Source: an uncultured Thermotogae bacterium
GTDB taxonomy: Bacteria > Bipolaricaulota > Bipolaricaulia > UBA7950 > UBA9294
Length of the DNA stretch: 64,000 bases
Direction of reading: 5' to 3'
Assembly (NCBI GenBank): GCA_964582285.1
Contig: CAZORQ010000006.1
Span: forward strand, 14,086 to 78,085
The translations under genes and the position numbers were made by a program. Under the pieces are notes generated by a model. The model saw only the letters and a program-made list of their open reading frames with translations, had not been told where the DNA came from and made no database searches. Shown here in pieces: positions 2,095 to 47,610 of the stretch. Every line of letters starts with the position of its first letter. Position 1 is the stretch's first letter.

Positions 2095-2129
2095 TCGCCC
2101 GGGAAACAGAAGGATACAAGACTAGGATG

Positions 2130-2159
2130 GCGGGAGGGAGAGACAAACCTCCCTCCCGC
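2130..2159 (+). terminator. intra-operon stem-loop after phnD (attenuating terminator or mRNA stabiliser)
   Basis: Perfect 11-bp stem GCGGGAGGGAG / CTCCCTCCCGC with an 8-nt loop, followed by TCGTTT. Sits between the binding-protein and ATPase genes. Confidence 0.45.
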
Positions 2160-2179
2160 TCGTTTACAGAAGGTGACCG

Positions 2180-4226: not shown

Positions 4227-4227
4227 C

Positions 4228-5699: not shown

Positions 5700-5787
5700 T
5701 GTCGCACCTCCAGAAGGAGAGTATACCTCGTCGGAACACCGATCTTCGATCGCGAAGCTCTCAAGCGCCAGCTGGCCGGAGTATCTT

Positions 5788-6300: not shown

Positions 6301-6311
6301 AATGGGCTCCC

Positions 6312-18917: not shown

Positions 18918-18959
18918 GCATCGGCTCGAGGTGGATCGCTTCCCGGCTGGTTCACAGCA

Positions 18960-31086: not shown

Positions 31087-32457
31087 TCAGTCGGAGACAG
31101 CATCGTACACATTGATCAGTCCGTGCCCGAACCTCTCATCGAACCCGTGTGCTCCCAAATCAATGGTTGATCTTCGAAGGATCTCGATGGCCCTATTCGG
31201 TGAGATTCCCGGATGCGATGAGAGAACCAACGCGAGAGCTCCGGCAACGTGCGGTGCCGCAAACGATGTTCCCGAGCGGGTTGACGTCCCTCCGCCTGGC
31301 ACGAATGACACAATCCACTCGCCAGGAGCACAGACAAACACCTCGGGTCCGTACGAGCTGAATCCCGCGGCGAGGTCGTCTTGGGTGGTTGCGGAGACAG
31401 CGTAGACCGAGTCGTACTTCCCGGGATACTGAACGCCTGCTTCCCCGGTATTCCCGGTGATCCCTATGATCAGTACACCACGCGTCGCCGCTCTCCGCAG
31501 CGCGTCCTCGAAGTAGCTTGGAGGTCTCCCGTGCGCAAACACGCTCATGTTGATGATCTTCGCCCCATTGTCGACAGCGTACTCAATCGCGTCGGCAAAC
31601 GTTCGCCAATCGGAGGACAGGAACTGGTTGTCCGAATTTAGAAACCGCACGTCCATGATCCGCACACCGGGCGCAATGCCGACAATCGGGGTCTCGCCAG
31701 GACGTGCTGCGATGATCCCCGCGCTAAACGTACCGTGCCAATGAATCGGCGTGCCGACAAGAGAGCTGTTGTCGTCATCTCGGAAATCCCACCCATTCAC
31801 GTCATCGACGTAGCCGTTGTGATCGTCATCTATCCCATTGCCAGGAATCTCGTCGTCGTTAATCCATAGGCTCTCTTGCAGCTGGGGAATCGACGTATCG
31901 ATTCCAGAATCGATCACGGCCACCACAACGTTCGGGTCCCCATGCTCGATCCACCAGGCTTCAGGGGCAAAGATCCGTTGCAGTCCCCAATTGACCGGTT
32001 CCTGATACACCGTGTATAGCCCTTCACCTTCCGTGATCGGAGTCTCTTCCAATGGTAGTTGGATGGGGAGAACCCGAAACGCGAGCGCCTTCGAGATGGG
32101 TCCATCTGCTCCAAGATCCAGCGCTGCCTCCACGAGGTAGATGCCCGTCCTTTGAAAGTCCCATCGGCTTCTTGCAATCGCACTTGCCGTTTCTCCGGGC
32201 GCAACGGAGAACGTCTCCACCGGGACAACCTCGATCACGCGGCCGAGTCGGTCTCGCAGGCTAACTCTCCCTTCGGCAAAAGTCAGAGGAGTGGTTCCCC
32301 GGTTTGAGAAGGCAAGCTCCACTTCAAACGGTGCCAAACTACGAATCTCGATCCGCTCGATCCACTCGCTTGAGGGCACCGCCGAGGCAACCTGTGCTAT
32401 GCAGGCTACCGCCAGAAGAACAGCCAAGTACCGGAGGACCATCGAGCGTCGTCTCAT
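31087..32457 (-). CDS. secreted subtilisin-like serine protease (peptidase S8) with an N-terminal beta-sandwich domain
   Basis: Signal peptide MRRRSMVLRYLAVLLAVACIAQVASA. Catalytic triad contexts VAVIDSGID, HGTFSAGII, GTSFAAPHVAG. ATGA overlap with the upstream GGDEF gene. Confidence 0.9.
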   Translation of the reverse strand: MRRRSMVLRYLAVLLAVACIAQVASAVPSSEWIERIEIRSLAPFEVELAFSNRGTTPLTFAEGRVSLRDRLGRVIEVVPVETFSVAPGETASAIARSRWDFQRTGIYLVEAALDLGADGPISKALAFRVLPIQLPLEETPITEGEGLYTVYQEPVNWGLQRIFAPEAWWIEHGDPNVVVAVIDSGIDTSIPQLQESLWINDDEIPGNGIDDDHNGYVDDVNGWDFRDDDNSSLVGTPIHWHGTFSAGIIAARPGETPIVGIAPGVRIMDVRFLNSDNQFLSSDWRTFADAIEYAVDNGAKIINMSVFAHGRPPSYFEDALRRAATRGVLIIGITGNTGEAGVQYPGKYDSVYAVSATTQDDLAAGFSSYGPEVFVCAPGEWIVSFVPGGGTSTRSGTSFAAPHVAGALALVLSSHPGISPNRAIEILRRSTIDLGAHGFDERFGHGLINVYDAVSD

Positions 32458-33752
32458 CCACGTGTAGTGTCGTCGGAACCGACAACCTGAGCGATGACCT
32501 CATCGATTCCCGGTGCTCCGGATTCTCCCCATCCCATATGCGTGATGGACACGTCAAAAGGGAATCCGAATTGGGCTGTTACATCGGGCACCAAGGCACG
32601 CAACCGTTCTGCAGCAACGCTTGCACCGTCTTCAGGCGTTTCGGGAAGCAATGAGGCAAACCGATGTTCCCCAACACGGAAGAGAACATCCACATTGCGC
32701 AGATTGCCAACAAGGAAGCTTGCTGTCCGAACGAGAACCCTGGCACGATCTTCCTCGCTCTGGGACTCCAGTCCGTCAAGTTGAGCTAGAAGGAGCGATG
32801 TCGCATGCCCGTACCGACGTGTCTTGTTCAACTCGCGGTCAAGTTCGGCCTGCAGATGATCCAGCGTGTAGGCGCCGGTGAGCTCATCGAGCACGACAAG
32901 CTTCATCAACTCCTGCTCGTGTGAGTGGATGACTTTCGTCATCAGGTTGAATCCCGAGATGAGCTGTCCGACCTCGTCGCGCAACGGCGTCCCTGGAATC
33001 CTTCGGAACGGAGCGGAGACCTCCACATCGTACTTCCGTTCCGCAACCGAACTCATCGCTTCGGCCAGTCGTCCGACCGGCTTGGTCACAATCGTCTGGA
33101 GCGCGATGTACAGGAACCCTCCAAGCAACAGAAATCCGACTATGGAGGCAACACCGAATCGCAATGAAAGCCGCGAGATGAACCATGCCTGCTCTGCAAG
33201 TGACATGTCGACGACGACAACACCCAGAAGGTCCGGTCCTGAGAAAATCGGATGGTGTGCCCTCAGGTAGGATATCCCGCCAAGCTGGATTGTGCTGACT
33301 TCGACACTCCTGAGCGTCTCGAAGTGGTCCTGTTCTGCCTCTGTTGCCAGGATGCCAACCATCGTCGGATCGGTACTCGCAACGGCCAGGAATCCACGAG
33401 CACTGAGACCGACGACTGTGATCCCTACGACTGATTCGTACCGCTCAAGCAATCGGGCGATGTCCGCATCGAGTTCATCCGAGTAGTAGAGGATGTATTG
33501 CTCTTCCTGTATCGATTTCGAGATGACTGCAGCGACGCTTCGGGCACGTTGCTCGTAGATCGATGCGATTGAACTTCGCAGAGAGATGGAAGCAAACGCG
33601 TACAGGGCACCGACGACCAAGAAAGCAATGACTAGGACAAGTACGACAAGTTTGGTCCGTAGGCTCACACCGTATCGGATCCAGGATCGGAAGCGCAGCA
33701 GCAGCTTGGGCCATCGAATCCGCTTCTGCACGGCAGCCTCTTTCGTCTCCAT
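32454..33752 (-). CDS. membrane sensor with HAMP and degenerate GGDEF domain
   Basis: Two TM segments flank a ~150-aa extracytoplasmic domain, followed by HAMP (PVGRLAEAMSSVAERKYDVEV...). In the GGDEF fold (DELTGAYTLDHL...) the active site reads GEHRF and the upstream RNVD (RxxD) is kept. AAAGGAG RBS. Confidence 0.8.
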   Translation of the reverse strand: METKEAAVQKRIRWPKLLLRFRSWIRYGVSLRTKLVVLVLVIAFLVVGALYAFASISLRSSIASIYEQRARSVAAVISKSIQEEQYILYYSDELDADIARLLERYESVVGITVVGLSARGFLAVASTDPTMVGILATEAEQDHFETLRSVEVSTIQLGGISYLRAHHPIFSGPDLLGVVVVDMSLAEQAWFISRLSLRFGVASIVGFLLLGGFLYIALQTIVTKPVGRLAEAMSSVAERKYDVEVSAPFRRIPGTPLRDEVGQLISGFNLMTKVIHSHEQELMKLVVLDELTGAYTLDHLQAELDRELNKTRRYGHATSLLLAQLDGLESQSEEDRARVLVRTASFLVGNLRNVDVLFRVGEHRFASLLPETPEDGASVAAERLRALVPDVTAQFGFPFDVSITHMGWGESGAPGIDEVIAQVVGSDDTTRG

Positions 33753-33766
33753 CGAATCTCCTTTTC

Positions 33767-36217
33767 CTACTCCGCGAGGACTCCCTGTTCTACGAGGTAC
33801 TCCCGCACGATCATCTCCGGTCGGCGCTGCAATAGGCGAACGCGGCTGCTCAAATCGTGGACCACGGAGGATGTCAGTGCGGCTGCGAGAGTTTCCAGTT
33901 CGTTGAGAAGCTCGGGGAACTGCGCACGAACGGTGGAGCGTAAGGCCACAACCACGCCTTCGGACCCGAACACGCCAAGATCATCTTCGAGCGCGACAAA
34001 CCCCGAAGCGGTCAGCACCTCTTCCAGACTATCCACGATGGCCATCTCGACCGCCCCGAACTTGAGAAGGACTTCCGTCTCCTCAAGCGTATGCGCCCAG
34101 TTGACGGAGTCCACCCAATCCGTCAATCCGTATTCCGCCTCCAGAGAGGTGGCGGCGTCCTTGCTCAATGACTCCGAGACGGCATACCGGAATGAATGCT
34201 GAGACTGATGGATCATCCCAGCAAACGAAGAGAGCGTTGCTTCTGACAAGCGGTCCGCTGTATCAGACGAAACAATGCTGGTCCAGCCCCTGGTTGCTGG
34301 AATCGGCAGAGCTTCGATATCCCCCTCCGTCTCGGAGATACCTGATGCGAGCCCCCTGTCTCCAATCGCGAGATCCACGTCTTGCGCTCGAAGCGCCTCG
34401 TGGACGCTATTCTCATCTCCCATGCCAATCAGATCGATCACCCGGAATCCAGCCTCAACCAACACATGCTGGAGAATGCGGCCCAGGATCTCTTGAGAGA
34501 GACTCCCCTCGGTTCCAATCGCCACCGTTCCGCGCCAAGCGGAACCTTCGAGAGTGACACCATTCGAGATCATCGCCAAGTTGGCATCACGAATATCCTT
34601 CACACCGCCCCACCAGTTTCCTCCCGCATAGAAGGCCTCGCCGGTTTCGTTTGCGATATCCAAAGACCCGCTCTCCGCGAAGACGTTGTTTACAGCAATC
34701 GGGGAAGCGATTTCGCCTCCCTCAATTGGCAACTCGGGAATCCCCTCAATGCTTGTTGCGCCCGTATGCCGAAGTCCGATGCGATTCCGTCGGATGGTGT
34801 TCCCCTCGATTCGGATACCAGTCCCGGAGCGGAGAAGAAGCATCCCAGTGTCGTTTGCAACAATGTCATTGTTCAGCACCTCGCTCCTCGAGGAAGCGAC
34901 AATCAGGATCCCGACAAATCCATCGAGTAGCCGATTCGCCGAAACACTCGTTTCTCGGGATCCGTCCAGCAGACAGAGGCCGACGGCCTCATGATCCTCA
35001 ATCCAATTTCGCAGCAGCGTATTCCCGGGGGAGCCCGCTAACACAACCCCCATCTCTCCCCCAGATATCCGGTTGTCAAAGAGGCTATTCAGGCTTCCCC
35101 CACTGAGGACGATTCCGGTTTGACGACTCGAGGAAATGCTGTTCCGAAGGATACGATTGCCCCTGCATCCCTCCGCTTCAATCGCGACGGTGTTCTCCAC
35201 CAGCCAGCTGCCAATCACTAGATTGCGGTCGCTGCCTGCAAGTCGGATCCCCGCCCCACCGCAGTTCTCGATTCGGTTATACGACAATGCGTTTTCGGCG
35301 CTCTGGGAGAGAAGGATCCCGTCATCTTGGGATGCATGGATTGCGCTTCCTATCGCTCGATTGCGCACAGCCTGTCGAAAGGACAGACCAGCAACGCTGG
35401 ATTCCTCGATCTCGCACTGGACGATCTCATTCCCGGTTGCGCCCTCAAGGAGGACGCCGATGCCCGAACCACGGATAGTCGTGCGTACGAGCTTGTTGTC
35501 GTTTGCTCCTCGGAATCCCACCGCTATGTTTGAGGATCGCTCAACCAGGCAATCCCGTAGCTCGTTTTCCGTCGATCCCTGCTCGATCAAGATGCCCATC
35601 GGAGCATCGGAGACGACGATCCGCTCGATGACGTTCTCCCACGATGCGAGTGCGGTCAGGCCGCTTTGGTCAGCACCGCGAACTGTGATATCAGCAAGCA
35701 GGTTGCCACCGGAAGAGACAAGCTCAATCCCGATCTGCTCGACATCCAGGTCGATCGCTTTGAGATTTGATGCCCGTGCGTCGCGCAGCTGGATTCCAAT
35801 CGGAGCGCCCGAGACACGTATGTCCTCAATCCTACAGCGCGCCGATTCCACACGAATGCCTATGCTCTCCGAGACAATGTCAAGTCCGCGCAGAGTAACT
35901 CCGTCCGCGCGGATCGCGAGCGCAGGCTCTGTACCATCCGCCTCCAACACCGCGGCCCTATCCACAATGAGCTTGAGTTCGGGAACATCAATCGACACAG
36001 GCCCTTTGAATGGTTCACCGCGCGATTGCAGGACGATTGTCCCGCCCGCGACGGCGTGGTCGACAGCCAACTGCACGGTAGCAAAATCCCGCGGGACGAA
36101 GATCGTCCCGTCGGGCCACCGGCGTACACCCACCACCAGGAAGATCGTGACCGAAATAGCAGCAACCACGGCCAACCCCAGAAGCGCGATTCCTGCCTTG
36201 CGTAGACGACGATTCAT
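33767..36217 (-). CDS. membrane-anchored right-handed beta-helix (NosD-like) protein fused to a C-terminal OpuAC-type substrate-binding domain
   Basis: 816 aa with an N-terminal TM anchor. ~500 aa of parallel beta-helix repeats (recurring ...N.I..N..GI.L... turns). The C-terminal ~290 aa resembles glycine-betaine-binding proteins (VAIGTEGSLSQEILGRILQHVLVEAGFRVIDL...DVDLAIGD...FPELLNELETLAAALTSSVVHDLSSRV). Confidence 0.7.
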   Translation of the reverse strand: MNRRLRKAGIALLGLAVVAAISVTIFLVVGVRRWPDGTIFVPRDFATVQLAVDHAVAGGTIVLQSRGEPFKGPVSIDVPELKLIVDRAAVLEADGTEPALAIRADGVTLRGLDIVSESIGIRVESARCRIEDIRVSGAPIGIQLRDARASNLKAIDLDVEQIGIELVSSGGNLLADITVRGADQSGLTALASWENVIERIVVSDAPMGILIEQGSTENELRDCLVERSSNIAVGFRGANDNKLVRTTIRGSGIGVLLEGATGNEIVQCEIEESSVAGLSFRQAVRNRAIGSAIHASQDDGILLSQSAENALSYNRIENCGGAGIRLAGSDRNLVIGSWLVENTVAIEAEGCRGNRILRNSISSSRQTGIVLSGGSLNSLFDNRISGGEMGVVLAGSPGNTLLRNWIEDHEAVGLCLLDGSRETSVSANRLLDGFVGILIVASSRSEVLNNDIVANDTGMLLLRSGTGIRIEGNTIRRNRIGLRHTGATSIEGIPELPIEGGEIASPIAVNNVFAESGSLDIANETGEAFYAGGNWWGGVKDIRDANLAMISNGVTLEGSAWRGTVAIGTEGSLSQEILGRILQHVLVEAGFRVIDLIGMGDENSVHEALRAQDVDLAIGDRGLASGISETEGDIEALPIPATRGWTSIVSSDTADRLSEATLSSFAGMIHQSQHSFRYAVSESLSKDAATSLEAEYGLTDWVDSVNWAHTLEETEVLLKFGAVEMAIVDSLEEVLTASGFVALEDDLGVFGSEGVVVALRSTVRAQFPELLNELETLAAALTSSVVHDLSSRVRLLQRRPEMIVREYLVEQGVLAE

Positions 36218-36627
36218 AATCTCACTCTACCACACTCGAACTGATACCGTCCAAAACATTGATCCCTTGGTTGGATTCGCATGCAGGATTGCTCGCGGAG
36301 CACGGTGTTGATCCATTGGGCCCTATGTGCCAATCCCCGCATCGGAGGAGCCAGCGGTGCGGTTTGCGCAAACGCCCTTCATTGCCCGAAATCACCAAGT
36401 GCCGGCCTCCTCGGCGCAATCCAAGCATTGCACCCTTCCGCCCGATTCTTCCTGGGTCGGAGTTGCTCAAGACACGATCTTGATCGGCGTTGCCATGGCC
36501 TGCCGTCTCTCTATCGGAATCAGCAGTTCTTCCATGTCGTTCTCACAGGCCCCCAAAGAGGAAGCGCTGGCTTGCTGTGCCCTCAACAGCCAAACCCATG
36601 AGGTCTCGGCGAGCCGCTCCACCGCCT

Positions 36628-36945
36628 CTATGTATCGGACAAGAGCTCCACGCCAATCGCAGCCAGCCAGCACAGAAAGCTTCGCTCAATCGCCGTGTCA
36701 TAGAAGTGGAGTGCCTCCGGTCCATGGGCTGTCGTGAACCGACCGATGTAGGCCATGATGCCTTCCCAATCCTCTTGCGGCATCCCGTCGCGAATCTGTT
36801 GTGCCCTATCGACACAGAGCATCGTCAGAACGCTGTCGACAGTGTAGTCCGTGAGCTCCGCAATCTGATCGAAACGGATGTCCCGCCCTTCGTCGAGAAG
36901 ACTGAGCACGCCTTGAATGAACTTGCGAACGGAACTTCGATACAT
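36628..36945 (-). CDS. hypothetical protein (weak call, possibly frameshifted)
   Basis: MYRSSVRKFIQGVLSLLDEGRDIRFDQIAELTDYTVDSVL... has protein-like composition, unlike the overlapping + strand ORF. A second protein-like frame continues at 36467-36673. Confidence 0.3.
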   Translation of the reverse strand: MYRSSVRKFIQGVLSLLDEGRDIRFDQIAELTDYTVDSVLTMLCVDRAQQIRDGMPQEDWEGIMAYIGRFTTAHGPEALHFYDTAIERSFLCWLAAIGVELLSDT

Positions 36946-37329
36946 GGGATCTCCCTTCCTCGGTCTCGCGGTGAGTCCATGCCGCTGATCAAAACGATGG
37001 TAACGATTTCTTGGGGGCATGCGCCAATGATCTCGACGGGCATGCCCGCGATTCGTTCAGTAACTTCATCAGGCCATCCCTGCCGAGTGGAGAGTCGATG
37101 TCATGATCTACAGATGCACGCCCTCTCCCTCTCATTGTCGCCCGAAACGTCAAATGCCGAACGTCTTAATGCCGTTCGGACAAGGCATAATCCGTTCGCT
37201 GCAAGTCAACCGAATGCATGAGCCTGACCGGCACGTGCAGACCGGGCATGGAAGGTGAGAAGCAACGCCGGTGCCTTCACATCTCGGGAGAGGGAGGACC
37301 GGCTGATACACAGCCAGAGGAGGCCAAGC

Positions 37330-40300
37330 ATGCTGGGTCAGAAGAAGCGCGCAAGAAGAGGTTCCCGATCAACTGACCCTTCCGGCCTTTCCGGTCGAAG
37401 TGGATTGATTCTACGAACGGCCATCGTTGCTGCGATCCTTATCGCGGGTCTTGTAGCCATGGCAAGCGCCAATGGAGCCCTCGAAATCGGCAGAGGGAGA
37501 GATGCTCACAGGTTCGAGTTCCTCGGTGTGGACTACAACAAGGACGGAACATCCACATGGATATATCGTGTCACCTCGGGGCGCAGACCGTCTCTCAGCC
37601 ACTGGGTTCTCGAGGTCGATCGCTCATTGAGCGACGACGCCATTGTCGATGCTTCGGAAGACTGCGAAGTTGGGAAGGATCCAACGACAGGCATATACGG
37701 ATTCAAGTTTGATCGGGGATACGATGACAGAGAGAGCCGCACAGTATCGTTCACTCTGGATGCTTCGTACGAGGCTGTAGACACGCAAATAGCCATCAAG
37801 GCTGGCAGAGATGCACTCGTGAGTGGATCCATCCCAGGCCCCAGTTCGGCCGCCGGTGCAGGTGGAGATAACCAGTCTCCCACGGCGGCTGACGATGAGG
37901 CAACAATCAACGAAGGTGCGAATCTGAAAATCTCCGTCTTGGACAACGATAGCGATGCGGATGGGGACAATCTTTCAATCGAATCCTTCACTCAGCCGGA
38001 TCATGGCAAAGTCAAGCAGAACGGCAAGAAGAGGATCAGGTACACACCGGAGAAGGGATTCAGAGGAATCGATGCGTTCACCTACACAATCTCCGATGGA
38101 AACGGTGGAACGGACACGGCGAAAGTCACTGTGACCGTAGGCAAAATGAGTGTGGAACCTGAGGCTCATGATGACCATGCGACAACCGATGCCGGCGTTG
38201 CGGTGAGCATCGACATCCTCGCCAACGACACAGACAGTGATGGGACAATCGACCCGGCAACGGTTGACATCACCGAGGCTCCCGGAGATGGAAAACTAAG
38301 CGTTGATCAAGCAACCGGCATCGTAACCTACTCCCCCGACCCAGGGAGCTGCGGAAGCGACCGCTTCGCGTACAGAGTCCGTGACAACGACGACGCCATG
38401 TCGAATGAGGCACGTGTCGAGATCCAGATCCTGTGTAACGCTCCTCCCAAGGCAAACGACGACGAGGCCATCGTAGGAGAGAATGCGGCGGTAGAGATCG
38501 ATGTGGTTGTCAATGACATCGATGAAGACGGTTCGATTGATGCGACAAGCCTTCTGATCAGCAACCAACCGAAGCATGGATCCTTGAGCGCGAATCCAGC
38601 CAACGGAGAGGTAACGTACAAGCCCGATAGGGGATTCTGCGGCGACGACGACTTCGAGTACACAATTGCCGACAACGATGGTGCGTCGTCCAACGAGGCG
38701 AGGGTCACCATCACTGTGGTGTGCAACCAACCTCCCGAGGCGGGTGACGATTCGGCAACAACAGATGAGAACACGTCAGTCGGAGTCGATATCGTCGCCA
38801 ATGATGTGGACAGAGACGGTTCGATCGATCCAGCAACGATCGTGATCACCAGAGAGCCCAAGAACGGAAGGCTGAGCGTTCACCCGACAACCGGCGTTGC
38901 AACGTATACGCCGGATCCCGGAAGCTGCGGGAACGATAGCTTCGGATACACGATCGATGATGATGACGGCGAAACGTCGCGGGAAGCACGTGTCGATATC
39001 GAGGTCCTATGCGATGATCCACCCTTGGCAATAGACGACCTTCACATGACAGATGAAGGGGACGTCCTCACCGTGACAGCGCCGGGCATCCTCGCCAACG
39101 ATGTGGACGCACCCGGCAAACCGTTGTTTGCGAAGCTTGTCAGGGACGTCCGTCACGGGTCGCTTTCTCTGCAATCGGATGGGTCGTTCGTCTATGAACA
39201 CGACGGCAGTGAGACAACAAGCGACGAATTCACCTATGTCGCCAACGATTCGAACAACGATTCGAACGTCGCTACAGTCAGCATCGTCATTGCACCGACA
39301 AACGATGAGCCGTCCGCCGCCGACGACGACGCAAGCACCGACGAGGACAACAGCGTACGCATCGACGTGCTGAAGAATGACACCGACCCGGATGGCGACA
39401 GGCTGACGGTTGACTGGGTCAAGTCGCCTGCAAGCGGCTCCGCGGCCAACAATGGAGATGACGTAACCTATACGCCGGATCCGGACTTCCACGGAACCGA
39501 CAGCTTCGCCTACGGCGTTTCCGACGGAAGTGGCGGCACCGCAAGCGCCACAGTCATAATCAATGTCACAGCAAGGAACGATCCCCCAAGCGCCGAAGAG
39601 GACAGCGCCGCCACGGATGAGGATACGTTGGTTGAAATCGATGTTCTCTCGAACGATTCCGATCCAGACGGTGATTCTCTTGTGATCACGTCGGTCAAGC
39701 AGCCGAGCAACGGCGATGTCGATAACAATGGGACAAAGGTTGTATACATCCCGGATCAGCAATTCAGCGGTGTGGATACGTTTGCGTATACCGTTTCCGA
39801 TGGGAACGACGGCCAAGCAACTGCGAAGGTTTCTGTCACGGTATTCGCGGTGAACGACCGTCCGATCGCTCAGGATGACTCCAGCACGACCAATGAGGAT
39901 CTCCCAATTGCCCTTGAGATTCTTGGCAACGATACCGATCCGGATGGCGATCGCTTGATCGTCCAATCGGTGACCCAGCCGGACCATGGGTCGGTCACGA
40001 CCAATGGCGAAGACGTAACCTATACTCCCAATCCGAATTTCAATGGGTACGATGCATTCAGTTACGTCATCTCCGATGGAAACGGCGGAACCGATACCGC
40101 AACCGTTCAGCTCACTATCGATCCGGTCAATGATGATCCCATCGCACAGGATGATTCCGCCGCAACCGATGAGGATCTCCCGACCGGTTTCAGCGTCCTC
40201 GGCAACGATGCCGATCCGGATGGCGATCGCTTGATCGTCCAATCGGTGACCCAGCCGGACCATGGGTCGGTCACGACCAATGGCGAAGACGTAGCCTATA

Positions 40301-43300
40301 CCCCCGATCCGGACTTCCATGGCTACGATGCGTTCAGCTACAGCATCTCCGACGGAAGCGGCGGAACCGATACCGCGACCGTTCAGATCACCATTGATCC
40401 GGTCAATGATGATCCCATCGCGCAGGATGACTCCAGCACAACCGATGAAGACATTCCGGCTACCTTCGACGTCCTCGGCAACGATACCGATCCAGACGGT
40501 GACAGTGTAACCATCCAGTCAGTGACCCAGCCGGATCATGGGTCGGTCACCAGCGATGGACGTGACGTGACCTACGTCCCGGATCCGAATTTCCATGGCT
40601 CCGACGCATTCAGCTACGGCATCTCCGACGGGAACGGTGGAACTGATACCGCGACCGTTCAGATCACCATCGATCCGGTCAACGATGACCCCATCGCACA
40701 GGATGATTCCGGCGCAACCGATGAAGATGTTCCGGTGACCTTCGACGTCCTCGGCAACGACACTGACCCCGAGGGTGACCGCGTGGCCGTTCAAGCGGTA
40801 ACTCAGCCAGATCACGGGTCGGTCACCACCGACGGGTCCGCGGTGACGTACGCTCCTAACCCAGACGTCCACGGCTCCGACGCATTCACCTACAGCATCT
40901 CCGACGGAAACGGCGGAACCAGCACAGCGACCGTCCAAGTCATCGTCAATCCGGTCAACGATGACCCCATCGCGCAGGATGATTCCGGCGCAACCGATGA
41001 AGATGTTCCGGTGACCTTCGACGTCCTCGGCAACGACACCGACCCGGAGGGCGACAGTCTGACCATCCAGTCCGTGACCCAGCCGGATCACGGATCGGTC
41101 ACCACCGACGGCGCCCGCGTGACCTACGTCCCCGATCCCGGCTTCAACGGAAATGATGCGTTTGCTTACATCGTGACCGACGGAAGCGGCGGAACCGATA
41201 CCGCCACGGTCACGATCGCCGTTGCCACCGTCAATGATGCCCCAGTAGCCGAGAACGATTCCGGTTTAACCGATGAGGACCTCCCGGTTACCCTCGATGT
41301 CCTCGACAACGATACCGATCCCGATGGTGATCGTTTGATCATCCAATCCGTGACTCAGCCGGATCACGGATCGGTTACCAACGACGGTGCCAGCGTGACC
41401 TATGTCCCCGAGTCGGACTACAGCGGCTCCGACACACTGACCTACAGCGTCTCCGACGGAAATGGTGGAACCGATACCGCTACGGTCACGATCATCGTCG
41501 ATCCCGTTAACGATGAGCCGGTCGCTCAGGATGATTCCGGCGCAACCGATGAGGACCTCTCCGTTACCCTCGATGTTCTCGACAACGACACCGATCCCGA
41601 CGGCGATGCACTGACCGTTCAATCCGTGACCCAGCCGGATCACGGATCGATTGAGAACGACGGCTCCGATGTCACCTACATCCCTAGTCCAGGCTTCAAC
41701 GGGAACGATACGTTCAGCTATACCGTGTCCGACGGAAGCGGTGGAACCGATACCGCCACGGTCACGATCGCCGTCGCCACCGTCAATGACGCACCCGTCG
41801 CAGAGAACGACTCCACGCTGACCGCTGAGGATCTCCCGGTCACCCTCAACGTCCTCGACAACGACACCGATCCCGACGGCGATGCACTGACCGTTCAATC
41901 CGTGACCCAGCCGGACCACGGATCGGTCACCACCGACGGCGCCCGCGTGATCTACACCCCCGAACCGAACTACAGCGGCTCCGACAATCTCACCTACAGC
42001 ATCTCCGACGGCAACGGTGAAACCGATACCGCAACGGTCACGATCACCGTCGATCCCGTCAACGATGAGCCGGTCGCTCAGGGTGATTCCGGCGCAACCG
42101 ATGAGGACCTCTCCGTTACCCTCGATGTCCTCGACAACGACACCGATCCCGACGGCGATGCACTGACCGTTCAATCCGTGACCCAGCCGGATCACGGATC
42201 GGTCACCAGTGACGGCGCTCGTGTGACCTACGTCCCCGATCCCGGCTTCAACGGAAATGATGCGTTCAGCTACACCGTGACCGACGGAAGCGGCGGAACC
42301 GATACCGCAACCGTGCAGGTCTCAGTGGCCACCGTCAATGATGCCCCCATGGCCGAGAACGACTCCGGCGCAACCGATGAGGACCTCTCCGTTACCCTCG
42401 ATGTCCTCGACAACGACACCGATCCCGACGGCGATGCACTGACCGTTCAATCCGTGACCCAGCCGGATCACGGATCGGTCACCAACGACGGTACCCGCGT
42501 GACCTACGTCCCCAATCCGAATTTCCATGGCTCCGACGCATTTACCTACAGCATCTCCGACGGAAACGGTGGAACCGATACAGCCACCGTTCAGCTCTCT
42601 ATCGATCCGGTCAACGACGAACCGAACGCCCAAGATGACTCCAGCGCAACCGATGAAGACCTCTCGGTTACCGTGGACGTCCTCGGCAACGACGCGGACC
42701 TGGACGGTGACAGCTTGCTCGTCCAATCCACGACTCAGCCAGATCACGGATCGATTGAGAACAATGGCTCCGATGTCACCTACATCCCCGATTCCGGCTT
42801 CAACGGAAACGATGTGTTCAGCTACGTTGTCTCCGACGGAAACGGTGGAATCGATACAGCGACCGTGACGATCGCAGTCGCAACGGTCAACGATCCACCA
42901 GAGGTGCTCGACGATACCGCGACAACCACGGAGGACGTTCCTGTGACTGTCTCCGCATTGGCAAACGACGTGGATCCAGATGGTGACAGCCTCCAAGTGG
43001 AGTCGGCGACCCAGCCATCCCATGGTGCTATTGTCCTCAGCAATGCGAGCATCGTGTACACACCGGCTCCCGACTTCTTCGGGACGGACCGCTTCACATA
43101 CACGGCAAGCGATGGCCATGGCGGTACCGGCACCGCCACGGTAGCCATTGTGATCCTCCCGATCAATGATTCACCGAGAGCTCAAGACGACAGTTCATCC
43201 ACAAGCGAAGACAAGGCGATCACGCTTCCTGTGCTCCAGAACGACAGCGATCCGGACGGCGACAATCTGGCAGTCCAAGCCGTGGTTCAGCCCGACCACG

Positions 43301-45297
43301 GCTCGGCCGTTAACAATGGCACCGACGTGACATACATTCCTGACCCCGGATTCAACGGCACGGACATCTTCACCTATACCCTCTCGGACGGCAGCGGCGG
43401 CACAGACACCGCGACCGTGATCGTCTCCGTTTCCGCGACAAACAATCCTCCTGCCGCACAACCCGATAGCGTCCCCACTGAGGCCGGAAGCATGGTAGCT
43501 ATCCCGGTTCTCGCCAACGACAGCGATCCGGATGGCGACTTCCTGTTGATCGAGTCATTCAGCCAACCGGCCAATGGCTCGGTTCTCAACGCCAGAACAA
43601 GCATCTCCTACATACCAGATTCAGGGTTCCAAGGAGTTGATACGTTCACGTATACCGTCTCCGATGGAAACGGCGGCACGAGCATTGCCACAGTGACCGT
43701 GTCCGTCGCTTCGTCAAATCGCCCGCCGGATGCACAAGATGACAATGCCGTTGGAACCGAGGGATTCCCAACGACCGTCCTCGTGCTGCTGAACGACAGC
43801 GATCCAGAGGGTGATCCCCTCGCTGTTGAGTCTGTAACTCAGGCGGAGAACGGAAAGGTCTCGACAGACGGCATCGAAATCGCGTACACGCCGGCTCCCG
43901 GCTTCAGCGGCGTCGACTCGTTCCTCTACACCGTCTCTGATGGAAACGGTGGAACTGATACAGCGACCGTCTTTGTTGCCGTCGCTGCAGTGAACGATCC
44001 ACCTATCGCCCAAGACGATAGTGGCGAGACTGAACGCGATGTGCCAATCGAAATCTCCGTGATGGACAATGATAGCGACCCGGACGGCGAGTCACTGACC
44101 ATCGCATCGGTAGCGCAACCTCTCAACGGCACGGTCGTCAACGCAGGGCAGTCCCTTGTCTACACGCCGGATGTAGGATTCACCGGGACAGATACGTTCA
44201 CGTATGTCGTCGCCGATGGGCGCGGCAACGTCGCCACAGCCACCGTAACAGTTGGTGTTTCCGGCGAGGCCGGAACCGGTGGTGCAACTGCGGAATCCGT
44301 ATGCGAAGGTAAGGCCATTATCAGTGAGGTCGCTTGGGCCGGAACAGCAGCAGATCCTCGAGATGAGTGGATCGAACTCCGCAATCTCGGGACAACACCT
44401 ATCAGCCTCGACGGGTGGGAACTGCGCTGGCGCCGAACCCATCCATCGACTCCAGAAGAACAGATGTGGAAGGTCATCGAACTATCAGGCATTCTTCCTG
44501 CCTCGTCGGGTCAAGCCTGCAATGGCACATCCTCTGCCATTGAGCCTCCTGTCCACCTCGCCAGGGACAACTCGAAGGATCCTGCGTGGTTCCTAACGAG
44601 CAGGATCGAGGACGAGGATACCGGGTTCTTCCTTCTCGAACGAAGACACGACAGTGTGATCAGCAATCGCAAGGCCGACCTTCTCTACGACACATCACAA
44701 ACTCTCGACCTGGAACTGTCGGATCTCGGCGAGGTCATCATGCTGGTCAACGATCGTGGAGACATCGTGGATACCGCAAACGCCTCGAATATGGGCCGGG
44801 ACGGATGGGCAGGAGGAAGTGCATCGACGTTCGGCACGATGGAACGAATCGACCCACAATCTGCTGACACGACTGCGAATTGGCACACGAACGCAGGAAT
44901 CGTTACTCATGGGGAGAACTCTAGAGAGCACCTTCTTCGTGCGACACCTGGCGGACTGAACTCGCCCGTTTTCGAGGATCTGGGCGCCTATGCAGCCATT
45001 GAACCAACAACAATGCGCGCTGGCGAACTTGTAAGCGTAGACTTCCCCCTGCCACGACAGGATCGCCGCACGACCGGATGGCCCTGGATCAGCGTATCAA
45101 GACCGGGCTTCACAGGGGCAGCCGGCGCCGGTGGCGCCGACGATCTTGCGGGCTACTCCTTCTCTGGTCGATATGAGGATGGTGATCGATACGTTCTCGA
45201 CATTGGCACGGAGAGCCTCCCCCCAGGGTTGTACGTCTTCTGGGTGACGTACGGACGAGGAAAGGCTGCTATTGTGCCAATTGTCGTGACGCGATAG
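37330..45297 (+). CDS. giant secreted adhesin-like protein: N-terminal domain, 23 cadherin-like ('tandem-95'-type) repeats, lamin-tail domain (LTD), C-terminal beta-rich tail
   Basis: The ORF track starts at GTG 37255. ATG 37330 has GAGGAGG 7 nt upstream. Signal peptide LILRTAIVAAILIAGLVAMASANG. Repeat consensus NDxPxAxDDSxxTDEDxxVxxDVLxNDTDPDGDxLxxxSVTQPDHGSVxxxGxxVTYxPxxxFxGxDxFxYxxSDGxGGTDTATVxxxV. LTD motif AIISEVAWAGTAADPRDEWIELRNLGTTPISLDGWELRW. Length 2,655 aa. Confidence 0.9.
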   Translation: MLGQKKRARRGSRSTDPSGLSGRSGLILRTAIVAAILIAGLVAMASANGALEIGRGRDAHRFEFLGVDYNKDGTSTWIYRVTSGRRPSLSHWVLEVDRSLSDDAIVDASEDCEVGKDPTTGIYGFKFDRGYDDRESRTVSFTLDASYEAVDTQIAIKAGRDALVSGSIPGPSSAAGAGGDNQSPTAADDEATINEGANLKISVLDNDSDADGDNLSIESFTQPDHGKVKQNGKKRIRYTPEKGFRGIDAFTYTISDGNGGTDTAKVTVTVGKMSVEPEAHDDHATTDAGVAVSIDILANDTDSDGTIDPATVDITEAPGDGKLSVDQATGIVTYSPDPGSCGSDRFAYRVRDNDDAMSNEARVEIQILCNAPPKANDDEAIVGENAAVEIDVVVNDIDEDGSIDATSLLISNQPKHGSLSANPANGEVTYKPDRGFCGDDDFEYTIADNDGASSNEARVTITVVCNQPPEAGDDSATTDENTSVGVDIVANDVDRDGSIDPATIVITREPKNGRLSVHPTTGVATYTPDPGSCGNDSFGYTIDDDDGETSREARVDIEVLCDDPPLAIDDLHMTDEGDVLTVTAPGILANDVDAPGKPLFAKLVRDVRHGSLSLQSDGSFVYEHDGSETTSDEFTYVANDSNNDSNVATVSIVIAPTNDEPSAADDDASTDEDNSVRIDVLKNDTDPDGDRLTVDWVKSPASGSAANNGDDVTYTPDPDFHGTDSFAYGVSDGSGGTASATVIINVTARNDPPSAEEDSAATDEDTLVEIDVLSNDSDPDGDSLVITSVKQPSNGDVDNNGTKVVYIPDQQFSGVDTFAYTVSDGNDGQATAKVSVTVFAVNDRPIAQDDSSTTNEDLPIALEILGNDTDPDGDRLIVQSVTQPDHGSVTTNGEDVTYTPNPNFNGYDAFSYVISDGNGGTDTATVQLTIDPVNDDPIAQDDSAATDEDLPTGFSVLGNDADPDGDRLIVQSVTQPDHGSVTTNGEDVAYTPDPDFHGYDAFSYSISDGSGGTDTATVQITIDPVNDDPIAQDDSSTTDEDIPATFDVLGNDTDPDGDSVTIQSVTQPDHGSVTSDGRDVTYVPDPNFHGSDAFSYGISDGNGGTDTATVQITIDPVNDDPIAQDDSGATDEDVPVTFDVLGNDTDPEGDRVAVQAVTQPDHGSVTTDGSAVTYAPNPDVHGSDAFTYSISDGNGGTSTATVQVIVNPVNDDPIAQDDSGATDEDVPVTFDVLGNDTDPEGDSLTIQSVTQPDHGSVTTDGARVTYVPDPGFNGNDAFAYIVTDGSGGTDTATVTIAVATVNDAPVAENDSGLTDEDLPVTLDVLDNDTDPDGDRLIIQSVTQPDHGSVTNDGASVTYVPESDYSGSDTLTYSVSDGNGGTDTATVTIIVDPVNDEPVAQDDSGATDEDLSVTLDVLDNDTDPDGDALTVQSVTQPDHGSIENDGSDVTYIPSPGFNGNDTFSYTVSDGSGGTDTATVTIAVATVNDAPVAENDSTLTAEDLPVTLNVLDNDTDPDGDALTVQSVTQPDHGSVTTDGARVIYTPEPNYSGSDNLTYSISDGNGETDTATVTITVDPVNDEPVAQGDSGATDEDLSVTLDVLDNDTDPDGDALTVQSVTQPDHGSVTSDGARVTYVPDPGFNGNDAFSYTVTDGSGGTDTATVQVSVATVNDAPMAENDSGATDEDLSVTLDVLDNDTDPDGDALTVQSVTQPDHGSVTNDGTRVTYVPNPNFHGSDAFTYSISDGNGGTDTATVQLSIDPVNDEPNAQDDSSATDEDLSVTVDVLGNDADLDGDSLLVQSTTQPDHGSIENNGSDVTYIPDSGFNGNDVFSYVVSDGNGGIDTATVTIAVATVNDPPEVLDDTATTTEDVPVTVSALANDVDPDGDSLQVESATQPSHGAIVLSNASIVYTPAPDFFGTDRFTYTASDGHGGTGTATVAIVILPINDSPRAQDDSSSTSEDKAITLPVLQNDSDPDGDNLAVQAVVQPDHGSAVNNGTDVTYIPDPGFNGTDIFTYTLSDGSGGTDTATVIVSVSATNNPPAAQPDSVPTEAGSMVAIPVLANDSDPDGDFLLIESFSQPANGSVLNARTSISYIPDSGFQGVDTFTYTVSDGNGGTSIATVTVSVASSNRPPDAQDDNAVGTEGFPTTVLVLLNDSDPEGDPLAVESVTQAENGKVSTDGIEIAYTPAPGFSGVDSFLYTVSDGNGGTDTATVFVAVAAVNDPPIAQDDSGETERDVPIEISVMDNDSDPDGESLTIASVAQPLNGTVVNAGQSLVYTPDVGFTGTDTFTYVVADGRGNVATATVTVGVSGEAGTGGATAESVCEGKAIISEVAWAGTAADPRDEWIELRNLGTTPISLDGWELRWRRTHPSTPEEQMWKVIELSGILPASSGQACNGTSSAIEPPVHLARDNSKDPAWFLTSRIEDEDTGFFLLERRHDSVISNRKADLLYDTSQTLDLELSDLGEVIMLVNDRGDIVDTANASNMGRDGWAGGSASTFGTMERIDPQSADTTANWHTNAGIVTHGENSREHLLRATPGGLNSPVFEDLGAYAAIEPTTMRAGELVSVDFPLPRQDRRTTGWPWISVSRPGFTGAAGAGGADDLAGYSFSGRYEDGDRYVLDIGTESLPPGLYVFWVTYGRGKAAIVPIVVTR
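37870..44258 (+). repeat. 23 tandem coding repeats of ~276-285 nt (cadherin-like modules)
   Basis: Counted from the translation. Central units are near-identical at the DNA level: 39941-40017 equals 40217-40293 (77 nt), and 42088-42208 equals 42364-42484 (121 nt), both letter for letter. Confidence 0.9.
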
Positions 45298-45615
45298 CAC
45301 ACGGACGGGACGCCTAATCAGTGAATCAATGAAGCGTCCGCACCGCTTTCATCGCCGTTTCCTGGGCGCAAGTCATCGCGGACCGGGAGGTAAGCGAAGG
45401 CAAGAGCCAAGCACCCCAGAGATTTCGGATTCCGCGTTCAAGCCTGCGGATGCCGACGGAGTACATCTCGCTCTGTCTCTCGCAGTTCCCTTGACAGACA
45501 AGACAGTCCGGTGTGCTCTTAGTGGGCAGCGAGGCGCCGCCTCGCAATGATCCATGCTATGATGCTGGGACAGGCATCCTCACATAGGAAGGACCCAGGG
45601 AGAAAAGAGGTTACC

Positions 45616-47610
45616 ATGAGATGCCGACCGAAGCACCTGGATACCGTCTTCCTTCGATGTCCGGTGCTGATGCTGCTCCTGCCGGCGCTTCTCCTTCTCA
45701 CATCGATCGGGGCGTTCGGCTCGTTGAATCTGACAGTCCGTGATTCCAGCACCGGAGACGACATCGCTCACGTCATTCTGTTCTACCCCGATGCCAGCCA
45801 GCTGGACCTAGGCTACACGCCGTTGGGGGTCATTGGACGCACGTGGGATCTTCTGACAGAGAGCCAGATCTTGACCAAGGGGGCAGGAACCTACACCCTA
45901 CGGATCATCCATGACGAGGACTTCGGTGCACCGTGCAATCCTCCAAACTGTGAGGTCCGCGGGACCTACGATATCACGTTCGGAGGCGGCATCGTCGTCT
46001 CTGCTGTGAGCGAAAACGCCACGGTAACCGCCGGCCAACCCGTGACCATCAACGTGCTGGACAACGACCTTCTTGTCAATGCATTGGCGTTCTCGTTCGG
46101 AACGATCCCTTGCCCGTTGACATTCCCGGACCCGACCTGCGCATGCAGTACTTATGGTTCAGGCACACAGTGTCCGAGCGGCCTAGAGGAGGGAGTGAAC
46201 TACGTGCAGGGCCAGTTCACGGTCACCGTCGGCGATCCGAGCCTGAGCATCCTATTCGTAAGCTCTCCGCCTCACGGGACAGCTACCATTGTCGGCGACA
46301 GCATCCTCTATACCCCTAATCCGGGATACTGCGGCCTGGAGACCTTCACATATACTGCACAGCGTAGCGGCGCTATTCCTGATACTGGCACAGTGACCGT
46401 AGCCGTTGCTGCTGCGCCCCCCGTCGCGCAGAACGATCTGGCGACAACTCTCGAGGGGATGCCAATCGTCATTGACGTTCTGCAGAACGACACCACTGCA
46501 GGCAATGGTCCACTCTCACTAGGCAGCGTCGGCAGTCCGTCCCATGGGAGCGCGATGATTGTCGGAGACACGATTCGCTATGTACCGCAGACGCGTTTCG
46601 AGGGACTCGATCGCTTCACCTACACCGCTCGGAACGCCTGCGGAGGAGTCGATGAAGCGTCGGTTGAGGTGAGCGTGATCCATGCCAATCATCCCCCCAC
46701 AGCCTCCGCAGGAGGTGTCTATCAAGGATTTGTCGGCGAACCAATGGAACTCAACGCGGGTTTCAGCACCGATTCCGATATCACGGATACTCTTCAGTTT
46801 CGGTGGGATCTTGATGAGGACGGCCAGTTCGATACAGATTGGCTATCCGACCCCGCCTACTCCGCAACCTTCGCATCGGCGTTTGTTGGCCGCGTGATGG
46901 TTGAAGTGCGAGATATCTACCGCGGGCAGCCTACTGGAGACATGGACCGTGCAACAGCACTGGTACGGATCGAACAGCGGCAGCCGGAACTACGAGGCGT
47001 CCTATTTGTGGATTTCGATGGCGATGGTTTGCCGGGGGAGGGAGACCCTCCGTTGCCGAAGATCCAGTTGGCACTTGACAGCGAGATGTACGCCATCACA
47101 GGAGACGACGGGCAGGCAATCTTCTCGAATCTCGCTGCAGGCCAGCATACCGTGACGATCACGCCCGACGGGTTGGCCCTGCTCCAGCTACAGGGTTTCG
47201 GTGTCGATCTGAGGAGCCCGTCGATAACGCTCGATATTCAGTCCGGGCCCCCAACCGTCGCGTTGTTCCCCATCCGCTCAATCGTCGGCTCGCTGGCCGG
47301 TCTCATCTACATCGATACGGATGGATCCGGCGAGCGAGAGCAGGGCGAGCCCGCCGTGCCGGACCTGACTGTGTCCCTACGCGAAGGACTCACGCGAACG
47401 ACGAACCAGGCCGGTCGCTTCCTGTTCATGAATGTTACCGCTGGAGAATACGTCTTGACGATCACGAGCGCGCAGCACCAATGGCAGGACCTCATTGGCA
47501 TCGAGTCGGGCGAGAGCACAGACATACTGATCGCCTGGCCATCGCCTGACTCCGGCTTCCTCGAGGTGAAAATCCAACCCGACCAACTGAGCTCGGAGGA
47601 GGAAGAGTGA
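45616..47610 (+). CDS. secreted modular protein: 2 cadherin-like modules, a PKD-like domain, 2 SdrD-B/CarboxypepD_reg-like domains
   Basis: ATG 45616 (GGGAGAAAAGAGG upstream). Signal peptide VLMLLLPALLLLTSIGAFG. Modules include TVTAGQPVTINVLDNDLL..., VAQNDLATTLEGMPIVIDVLQNDT..., LQFRWDLDEDGQFD (PKD-like), and GVLFVDFDGDGLPGEGDPPLPKIQ.../GLIYIDTDGSGEREQGEPAVPDLTV... (SdrD-B-like). Confidence 0.8.
   Translation: MRCRPKHLDTVFLRCPVLMLLLPALLLLTSIGAFGSLNLTVRDSSTGDDIAHVILFYPDASQLDLGYTPLGVIGRTWDLLTESQILTKGAGTYTLRIIHDEDFGAPCNPPNCEVRGTYDITFGGGIVVSAVSENATVTAGQPVTINVLDNDLLVNALAFSFGTIPCPLTFPDPTCACSTYGSGTQCPSGLEEGVNYVQGQFTVTVGDPSLSILFVSSPPHGTATIVGDSILYTPNPGYCGLETFTYTAQRSGAIPDTGTVTVAVAAAPPVAQNDLATTLEGMPIVIDVLQNDTTAGNGPLSLGSVGSPSHGSAMIVGDTIRYVPQTRFEGLDRFTYTARNACGGVDEASVEVSVIHANHPPTASAGGVYQGFVGEPMELNAGFSTDSDITDTLQFRWDLDEDGQFDTDWLSDPAYSATFASAFVGRVMVEVRDIYRGQPTGDMDRATALVRIEQRQPELRGVLFVDFDGDGLPGEGDPPLPKIQLALDSEMYAITGDDGQAIFSNLAAGQHTVTITPDGLALLQLQGFGVDLRSPSITLDIQSGPPTVALFPIRSIVGSLAGLIYIDTDGSGEREQGEPAVPDLTVSLREGLTRTTNQAGRFLFMNVTAGEYVLTITSAQHQWQDLIGIESGESTDILIAWPSPDSGFLEVKIQPDQLSSEEEE

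Follow-up and report, generated by a model that had tools for sequence, protein, structure and literature searches.

A stretch of 64,000 nucleotides from contig CAZORQ010000006.1 (assembly GCA_964582285.1), which belongs to an uncultured member of the Bipolaricaulota and is here called the window, carries a short operon on its minus strand that stands head-to-head with genes for giant, repeat-rich surface proteins. The question raised by this locus is whether the operon governs the giant proteins and, if it does, through what signal. Three consecutive genes are at issue: a fusion of a beta-helix to an OpuAC-type domain (816 amino acids, 33767..36217; Pfam NosD, Beta_helix and OpuAC), a receptor with two transmembrane segments (432 amino acids, 32454..33752; Pfam HAMP and GGDEF), and a subtilase of the S8 family (456 amino acids, 31087..32457; Pfam Peptidase_S8). 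An earlier, sequence-only reading had proposed that these genes form a switch gated by cyclic di-GMP (c-di-GMP), analogous to the LapD-LapG-LapA system of Pseudomonas and assembled from unrelated parts, in which the receptor directs the protease to release a giant adhesin. Its three open reading frames (ORFs; 36217->33767, 33752->32454 and 32457->31087) are real and carry the domains it described (Pfam), and the gene context from which it argued recurs in relatives; its cleavage site did not survive comparison, and the S8 gene is missing from some of the related loci. Our favoured explanation is that the locus is a Bipolaricaulota-specific envelope signalling module, a three-part extracytoplasmic complex that would be set by c-di-GMP at an inhibitory site (I-site) of the receptor and would act on the giant proteins. 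We hold this tentatively, at a probability of roughly 0.38.

A receptor with a decayed active site and a retained I-site

Two hydrophobic segments (residues ~25-60 and 191-223), with ~140 residues between them, are found in the receptor, and Pfam detects a HAMP domain (nt 33089-32934, minus strand; 29.4 bits, cutoff 25) and a GGDEF domain (nt 32891-32478, minus strand; 36.9 bits, cutoff 23.8). The AlphaFold2 (AF2) model, which has a mean predicted local distance difference test score of 74, places in order a first transmembrane segment, an outside domain of PAS/sCache-like form (residues 57-195; nt 33584-33168, minus strand), a second transmembrane segment, HAMP, a coiled coil, and a GGDEF fold; its helices at residues 31-84 and 186-237 span the two hydrophobic segments. 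The sCache_3_2 domain is recorded in homologues of the receptor. A Foldseek search with the model returned a WalK(-YycH) model first and diguanylate cyclases after it, LapD was not in the top 50, and NCBIfam gave a weak match to the N-terminal part of WalK. The protein ends ~40 residues past the GGDEF domain, and HAMP and GGDEF are the only domains that Pfam shows.

The active site (A-site) of the GGDEF domain reads GEHRF instead of GG[DE]EF (32658..32672, minus strand). Alignment to solved cyclases bore out both motifs named in the sequence-only reading, GEHRF and RNVD, with canonical spacing. RNVD (R352-N-V-D355; 32688..32699, minus strand) aligns exactly to the RxxD of the solved cyclases, five residues ahead of GEHRF, and conservation identifies R383 (32606-32604, minus strand) as a third I-site residue, which we take, by offset, to correspond to R390 of PleD. 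Only 23% of the columns of the GGDEF domain are at least 99% conserved across 135 distinct receptor sequences, and R352, D355, and R383 are invariant in all 135. Over the same sequences, A-site positions 361-363 accommodate 6, 9, and 13 residue types, respectively; position 364, the catalytic Glu of cyclases, is Arg in 133 of the 135, and F365 is invariant.

The receptor family is narrowly distributed. The N-terminal half of the receptor was searched exhaustively with HMMER against 1.84 billion cluster representatives, and only five of them matched at E <= 1e-30. All named close relatives are labelled Bipolaricaulota (Acetothermia), and nine metagenome contigs hold exact copies of the window receptor protein. 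The closest non-members, P0279 and P0280, share 33-35% identity over the N-terminal half and have the same outside-domain signature; both have intact LTGxxNR and RxxD-x5-GGDEF motifs, and we therefore regard the receptor family as a decayed cyclase in which the I-site has been kept. By these sequence comparisons it is a small, phylum-restricted offshoot of an active sCache-HAMP sensor cyclase, one that has lost catalysis and whose I-site has stayed under strict selection. Its non-catalytic A-site, RxxD, and further Arg are the features by which the degenerate-GGDEF class of I-site receptors is recognised in sequence. The receptor is thus most likely a membrane c-di-GMP receptor, a reading that the conservation strengthens beyond what the window by itself had supported; the binding we infer. 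The contigs that carry the two outgroup cyclases are very short: on one of them (L128, 2571-6756), the P0279 gene lies downstream of a Trypsin_2 protease gene and of an unannotated 533-amino-acid gene unrelated to the beta-helix/OpuAC fusion.

A c-di-GMP-independent explanation would be that the receptor is a membrane scaffold on which the beta-helix/OpuAC protein and the S8 protease are assembled or matured, and that its GGDEF domain, unable to bind nucleotides, survives only as a structural relic. The Pfam GGDEF match is indeed weak and, at positions 3-112 of 161, truncated; compared with solved cyclases, 4 residues are deleted from the loop that leads to the I-site; and the 64-kb window holds no other GGDEF or EAL gene. 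Strict invariance of R352, D355, and R383 while the neighbouring A-site drifts is difficult to reconcile with a relic, as is the recurrence of c-di-GMP turnover genes in the operon of relatives, and we judge this explanation quite improbable.

The operon and its neighbours in related loci

Comparison of loci relied on a scan of one genome per GTDB species, which gave 26 Bipolaricaulota loci (25 distinct), with further loci from an S8-based metagenome scan and from single-protein look-ups. Patterns in the metagenome scan were generic S8 motifs, and its 80 loci were mostly those of unrelated subtilases; only L039-L042 proved to be orthologues. L043 and L044 were rejected as orthologues and treated as paralogues, being ~51-52% identical in the catalytic domain only, with nothing that matches the N-domain, and having no receptor neighbour. 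Two further loci, L016 and L017, are contigs of one metagenome-assembled genome (CAZUIM01) with identical 21-kb copies of the locus, which may reflect assembly redundancy or a recent duplication. Overall, the arrangement recurs in ~36 related loci, down to 52-53% receptor identity, which is more than chance would give.

Wherever a locus includes upstream flank (~35 loci), the receptor gene is immediately preceded by the beta-helix/OpuAC gene. The sequence-only reading had treated its product as a bystander; it is instead the sole invariant partner of the receptor. The operon is tightly packed in the window, where 11 nt separate the beta-helix/OpuAC stop codon from the receptor ATG, and AGGAG precedes that ATG. 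The overlap between the receptor and S8 genes was read correctly at the outset: the TGA of the receptor and the ATG of the protease share 4 nt as ATGA (32454..32457, minus strand). The same overlap is present in 23/23 main-clade relatives, making 24/24 with the window, at receptor identities of 53-82%, and its retention over such divergence suggests that receptor and protease are co-translated.

The S8 gene itself is less constant. It lies directly downstream of the receptor gene in 17 of the 24 informative loci selected by receptor (three more were uninformative). The linkage in relatives that the sequence-only reading asked for is nevertheless largely present, and most strongly in the overlap. 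Viewed from the protease, the association is complete: every full-length, N-domain-bearing S8 orthologue found directly follows a receptor-family gene, including 9/9 of those selected by S8. Loci without S8 fall at two places on the receptor tree, namely clade B1 (L021, L023, L027, L028, L029, L032, and L119) and L025 with L014. Downstream of the receptor they have genes for a major facilitator superfamily protein, queuosine salvage, prismane, or a PAS-GAF-GGDEF protein; the last is found in L023, and a GGDEF-type match is similarly placed in L028. The lineage of L014 has two paralogous modules flanking one giant gene (L126 1-7419, L127 1792-7041, L014 2-11296). Its alpha module comprises the beta-helix/OpuAC gene, a receptor gene whose product is 52-54% identical to that of the window, and S8, and converges on the giant gene at its 3' end; the alpha receptors keep RxxD together with a degenerate A-site, VSENRF. 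The beta module, with a receptor 69% identical to that of the window, is divergent from the 5' end. The L014 contig stops 617 nt past the beta receptor gene, and an S8 gene could lie beyond; its sister L025 has unrelated genes downstream.

Twelve relatives (L007, L008, L011, L013, L016, L018, L019, L022, L026, L030, L123, and L124) have a PAS-GGDEF-EAL gene in the operon, between orf105, the small first gene, and the beta-helix gene. In the L008 copy (5762-7465), the GGDEF motif and the signature residues of the EAL domain are intact; that of L123 lies at 2738-4408. In the fullest operons, of the L018 type (L018, L123, and L124), the PAS-GGDEF-EAL gene is followed by genes for a dockerin-bearing protein and a 166-amino-acid protein. 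Bipolaricaulota genomes have only 1-4 GGDEF proteins each (PMC10086821), so much of the c-di-GMP machinery of the phylum may reside in this locus.

The beta-helix/OpuAC protein has a single N-terminal hydrophobic segment, by which it is predicted to be anchored in the membrane and to face outward. A right-handed beta-helix occupies residues ~40-540 and an OpuAC-type substrate-binding domain residues ~561-816 (39 bits, Pfam cutoff 21.2), and the nearest structures of the latter in the PDB are binding proteins of the OsmF/OpuBC type. The fusion is found only in Bipolaricaulota. An identity as NosD was rejected (TIGR04247 scored 93 bits, its cutoff being 300; the locus has no nos genes, and only generic parallel beta-helix repeats match), and so was a role as an OsmF transporter component, for which the equivalog score is far below cutoff and such a gene context is missing. 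The operon contains no ABC permease gene. At the position of the OpuBC/OsmF-type motif DLYxEYTG, which from OpuBC/OpuCC structures we take to hold residues of the aromatic cage for quaternary amines, most family members have DVDFIWWGT. The window copy (33770-34537, minus strand) reads DVDLAIGDRG, and its binding pocket therefore differs from the family consensus.

The S8 protein consists of a signal peptide, an Ig-like N-domain, a disordered linker, and a subtilisin domain (Peptidase_S8, 161.6 bits). Its signal-like N-terminus and intact triad are as first described, and D183, H241, S398, and the oxyanion Asn, N336, are invariant in two orthologue sets (n=15 and n=47). The catalytic domain has the ordinary S8A subtilisin fold: its matches in Foldseek and the PDB are subtilisin BPN', thermitase, and deseasin, with a TM-score of ~0.8 to subtilisins when normalised to the target. 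No Pfam family, and thus no I9-type propeptide, was found ahead of the catalytic domain. There the AF2 model has a seven-stranded, all-beta, Ig-like sandwich (residues 33-129) in the N-domain (residues 33-134; nt 32361-32056, minus strand); Foldseek matched the catalytic domain only and returned nothing for this N-domain. It is homologous (E = 2e-14) to the central domain of the dockerin-bearing protein encoded in the same operon of relatives. A T7SS (type VII secretion system) mycosin, the best NCBIfam model (TIGR03921), was rejected because the score of 189.3 bits is below the cutoff of 278.75 and no ESX genes are among the locus genes examined. P0201, an S8 relative of 790 amino acids, has a cytoplasmic N-terminal extension, a transmembrane anchor, and two tandem Ig-like N-domains before its subtilisin domain.

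Facing the operon, giant gene 1 (2,655 amino acids, 37330..45297, plus strand) probably starts at the ATG at 37330, behind GAGGAGG. The N-termini of its product and of six orthologues have a basic stretch, a hydrophobic helix, and small residues, resembling a cleavable Sec signal peptide, and an N-terminal transmembrane or retention anchor was rejected on that resemblance. Next come a conserved N-domain of ~150 amino acids with a SHWVLEF motif, which has no Pfam, NCBIfam, or PDB match, a variable linker, 23 Big_9/cadherin-like repeats, and a C-terminal region of ~330 amino acids from nt 44302 with a weak, below-cutoff LTD match (Pfam). The linker PSSAAGAGG does follow the non-repeat N-domain (37840-37866), as the sequence-only reading had it; its proposed use as the processing site found no support, as the linker is short and variable across orthologues, Ala-Ala occurs in some only, and the only conserved elements around it are the preceding I-x-GP and the following N-x-P-P-x-A-x-DD. 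Long minus-strand ORFs within gene 1 (38296-44492; for example 39007-40320, 437 amino acids) are shadow frames of the repeats, which match relatives because they overlap Big_9 repeats, and AT skew is high (0.13-0.21) over 38-44 kb.

Three giant proteins had been proposed, and two are indeed giant; the product of gene 2 (45547..47610, plus strand) has only 687 amino acids, with Big_9 and SdrD_B/CarboxypepD_reg domains, a weak PKD match below cutoff, and an N-terminal hydrophobic segment. Gene 3 (47612..64000, plus strand) starts with a GTG behind AGGAGG, 1 nt past the gene 2 stop codon, and encodes more than 5,460 amino acids before it is cut by the end of the window; the ORF lister had omitted it since its frame runs off the window, and it was found by a stop-to-stop scan and translation. 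Its product has DUF11-type repeats (NCBIfam) and SdrD_B-like units, with ~15 copies of a ~160-amino-acid unit ending in DxxDPDADDTGIA, and its C-terminal part of ~1,300 amino acids is non-repeat and helical. In 21 of 22 informative related loci, and likewise in the window, the operon faces a giant gene of the Big_9 or DUF11 type head-to-head. This adjacency is kept in clade B1, where the opposite flank has been rearranged, and in the L014/L126 lineage.

How the locus may work

Under the favoured explanation, occupancy of the I-site by cytoplasmic c-di-GMP would be relayed through HAMP to the outside domain of the receptor, that is, inside-out. The relay would alter how a complex of this ectodomain and the beta-helix/OpuAC protein holds or exposes the subtilase, and the state of the subtilase would control whether the giant Big_9/DUF11 surface proteins are processed or shed. 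The membrane-anchored beta-helix/OpuAC protein would be the constant partner of the receptor. The Ig-like N-domain may act as a docking-type domain of a protease whose gene appears to be translationally coupled to that of the receptor in most lineages, and the PAS-GGDEF-EAL enzyme of many relatives could make and break c-di-GMP locally. Hydropathy and the AF2 models fit an extracytoplasmic meeting place for all three operon products; the direction of signalling, the contact between receptor, protease, and beta-helix protein, and the identity of the substrate are inferred.

Several observations weigh against this explanation. The outside domain, which is the most conserved region of the receptor, is no less conserved where S8 is missing (B1-B1 identity 0.77 against A-A identity 0.74); relaxed constraint on it in S8-less loci was looked for and none was found, so S8 binding cannot be the main constraint on this domain. 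The ancestral architecture is that of an outside-in sensor cyclase, and the outside domain may therefore still be an input and not an output. S8 is not at the locus in 7 of the 24 informative receptor-selected loci, where gene 1 and the beta-helix/OpuAC-receptor pair persist, and the architecture of gene 1 is alike with or without S8, with no conserved cleavage motif after the N-domain. L009, a close relative and the sole exception to giant gene linkage, has no giant gene beside its operon. Much of the chromosome flanking the group A loci is also syntenic (AAA_33, OsmC, DRTGG, a response regulator, and a histidine kinase), so part of the linkage could be inherited order. The window lacks the PAS-GGDEF-EAL gene. 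Finally, rate covariation (a mirror-tree analysis of residuals after removal of a species proxy) gave a receptor-S8 correlation of r = 0.33-0.58, when control pairs reached 0.59; operon pairs were only marginally above control pairs, a weak result, with the beta-helix/OpuAC protein at 0.64-0.73 with the receptor and at 0.64-0.75 with either partner.

Some of these points suit an outside-in co-sensor better. The beta-helix/OpuAC protein would then capture an extracellular ligand, or report the state of the envelope, to the sCache domain of the receptor, in the manner of NspS with MbaA or of YycH/YycI with WalK. The dead GGDEF domain would have a protein-protein output, for example on the PAS-GGDEF-EAL enzyme, and c-di-GMP bound at the I-site would provide feedback; S8 and the giant proteins would be surface functions expressed together, and not a protease gated towards its substrate. 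Sensor cyclases with intact motifs and the same outside domain are the closest outgroup, and that domain remains the most conserved part of the receptor also in S8-less loci. The beta-helix/OpuAC protein is the only universal partner, and its residual rate correlation with the receptor exceeds that of the receptor with S8. Fold and NCBIfam similarity to the sensor half of WalK, and an aromatic WW at the OpuBC-type cage-motif position in most family members, point the same way. Such a co-sensor would, however, lack an enzymatic or DNA-binding output, and its suggested target is found neither in the window nor in many of the loci with the beta-helix/OpuAC-receptor pair. It leaves the strict ATGA coupling to S8 unexplained, and the OpuAC domain of the window has lost the aromatic motif. 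We consider the co-sensor somewhat unlikely.

The linkage evidence admits another interpretation, that the module is a c-di-GMP-linked envelope module as in the favoured explanation, and that the protease has another substrate, whether the beta-helix/OpuAC protein or the receptor ectodomain, as in regulated proteolysis, or an external protein taken as food; adjacency to the giant genes would then be inherited order. Group A synteny does reach well beyond the operon, L009 keeps the operon without giant genes, the adjacent giant gene differs by locus (gene 1 in most, a gene 2/3-type gene in L022 and L031), and gene 1 has no conserved cleavage motif. Bipolaricaulota are also reported to live by fermenting amino acids and to have few extracellular proteases (PMC6092417). 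Inherited order is less easily squared with giant genes that keep their place beside the operon in clade B1 despite the break in synteny, that remain adjacent through module duplication on both sides of gene 1 (L014/L126), and that are found in 21/22 informative related loci; moreover, a 4-nt overlap with a membrane receptor gene, present in 24/24 loci, is hardly what a protease serving nutrition alone would show. We judge this interpretation unlikely.

The favoured explanation can be taken further, to a GGDEF-only I-site receptor that, with a beta-helix/binding-protein co-receptor, sequesters or releases a subtilase, which in turn sheds the giant proteins. Such an inside-out c-di-GMP switch would have evolved independently, in a phylum that is deep-branching and uncultured, and because there are only 1-4 GGDEF proteins per genome, a module with its own PAS-GGDEF-EAL enzyme might be the main or original c-di-GMP output in Bipolaricaulota. 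In this full form we find the proposal doubtful.

Known systems and other features of the window

The closest parallel in logic is LapD-LapG-LapA of Pseudomonas fluorescens, in which periplasmic proteolysis is under inside-out control by c-di-GMP (PMC3032553, PMC5231407). LapD and the receptor described here both have two transmembrane segments, an outside domain of PAS/Cache-like form, HAMP as the relay, and a c-di-GMP domain that is catalytically dead, and in both systems a receptor gene lies beside a gene for a secreted protease, very large repeat surface proteins are encoded nearby, and c-di-GMP turnover enzymes are associated. The parts differ. LapD binds c-di-GMP through its EAL domain, whereas the present receptor has no EAL domain, its candidate site is the GGDEF I-site, and Pfam finds no LapD_MoxY_N match in it. 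LapG is a calcium-dependent cysteine protease of transglutaminase-like type (DUF920), and the protease here is a serine S8 enzyme with an Asp/His/Ser triad. LapA is an RTX adhesin exported by a T1SS (type I secretion system), with a retention module and a di-Ala site, whereas the gene 1 product is of Sec type, with Big_9 repeats, a weak LTD match, and no RTX match in Pfam. Among the upstream window genes scanned, only components of ABC-importer type (Phosphonate-bd, ABC_tran, and BPD_transp_1) appeared. The beta-helix/OpuAC protein, the third constant component here, has no Lap counterpart, and the protease is dispensable in some lineages. Orthology with Lap was rejected: there are no matches to Lap families, and of the defining features of the Lap parts that were compared, only the two-transmembrane/HAMP layout is present.

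In its candidate binding site, the receptor resembles PelD, CdgG, and PopA, GGDEF receptors with inactive A-sites that bind c-di-GMP through RxxD (PMC3032553). The GGDEF fold, dead A-site, and conserved RxxD are shared, and PelD is membrane-anchored too. Those receptors lack a HAMP-coupled outside sensor, they control polysaccharide synthesis or intracellular proteolytic targeting, and they are not known to go together with a secreted subtilase or with a fusion of a beta-helix and a binding protein. In the literature we found no description of an I-site receptor coupled to either of the latter.

For the outward half of the locus, parallels are offered by membrane sensors that depend on an accessory protein, such as MbaA with NspS in Vibrio cholerae and WalK with YycH/YycI in Firmicutes. 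These have an sCache/PAS outside domain with HAMP, and, encoded adjacently, a binding protein outside the membrane or an accessory protein anchored in it that acts on the outside domain. Output runs through an active EAL domain in MbaA and through a kinase in WalK, whereas the receptor here has no enzymatic output, and the accessory protein here is a unique fusion of a beta-helix with OpuAC. Envelope S8 proteases that are encoded with large secreted or surface proteins and process them include SphB1, acting on FhaB in Bordetella, and the mycosin MycP of ESX/T7SS loci; the likeness is that of a dedicated, envelope-located S8 protease encoded beside large surface proteins. SphB1 is an autotransporter, mycosin has a C-terminal transmembrane anchor and belongs to a T7SS locus, and neither is known to be tied to a c-di-GMP receptor. 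To our knowledge, LapD/LapG is the only established outward relay from a second messenger to an extracytoplasmic protease and the display of a giant adhesin.

If the favoured explanation is true, the locus would be a second, non-homologous solution of the LapD/LapG kind, and the logic would be a recurrent design and not a proteobacterial speciality. A GGDEF I-site receptor would here work with a serine protease and with a partner that joins a beta-helix to a binding protein, all in an envelope of Thermotoga-like or monoderm type. According to an earlier genome study, Bipolaricaulota have no cell-surface adhesins (PMC6092417), and the locus would be the first candidate mechanism of regulated surface attachment for these uncultured bacteria. 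The cytoplasmic fragment and ectodomain of the receptor, the N-domain of S8, and the N-terminus of gene 1 are small soluble pieces, so the hypothesis is testable in vitro without culturing.

Between the operon and gene 1, the genes are divergent as first described, but the 1.1-kb space that was thought to separate them is not empty. It contains orf105 (105 amino acids, 36628..36945, minus strand; gene calls and conservation), which leaves a true divergent intergenic region of ~384 bp (36946..37329). The orf105 product is small and conserved (72-85% identity in relatives) and is predicted to be cytoplasmic, with no match in Pfam, NCBIfam, or PDB sequence searches. The gene heads the operon in most relatives, and in most S8-containing loci, and is not found in the S8-less clade; it was called in L001-L006, L121, and L123-L124, and on every copy of the window contig. 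Between orf105 and the beta-helix gene is a 410-bp gap (36218..36627) at the position taken by PAS-GGDEF-EAL in relatives, with no remnant of that gene in the window. An Rfam scan of the whole window found no family, hence no c-di-GMP riboswitch upstream of the giant genes; a tRNA search of the window found none, and promoter and terminator counts over 30.3-37.4 kb were not above those of shuffled sequence. Elsewhere in the window, the plus strand has a phosphonate-type ABC importer (1072-5454), with an ATPase, a binding protein, and two permeases of unusual length (454 and 408 amino acids), and two tandem BNR/Sortilin-Vps10 beta-propeller genes (16548-20609) of 789 and 549 amino acids.

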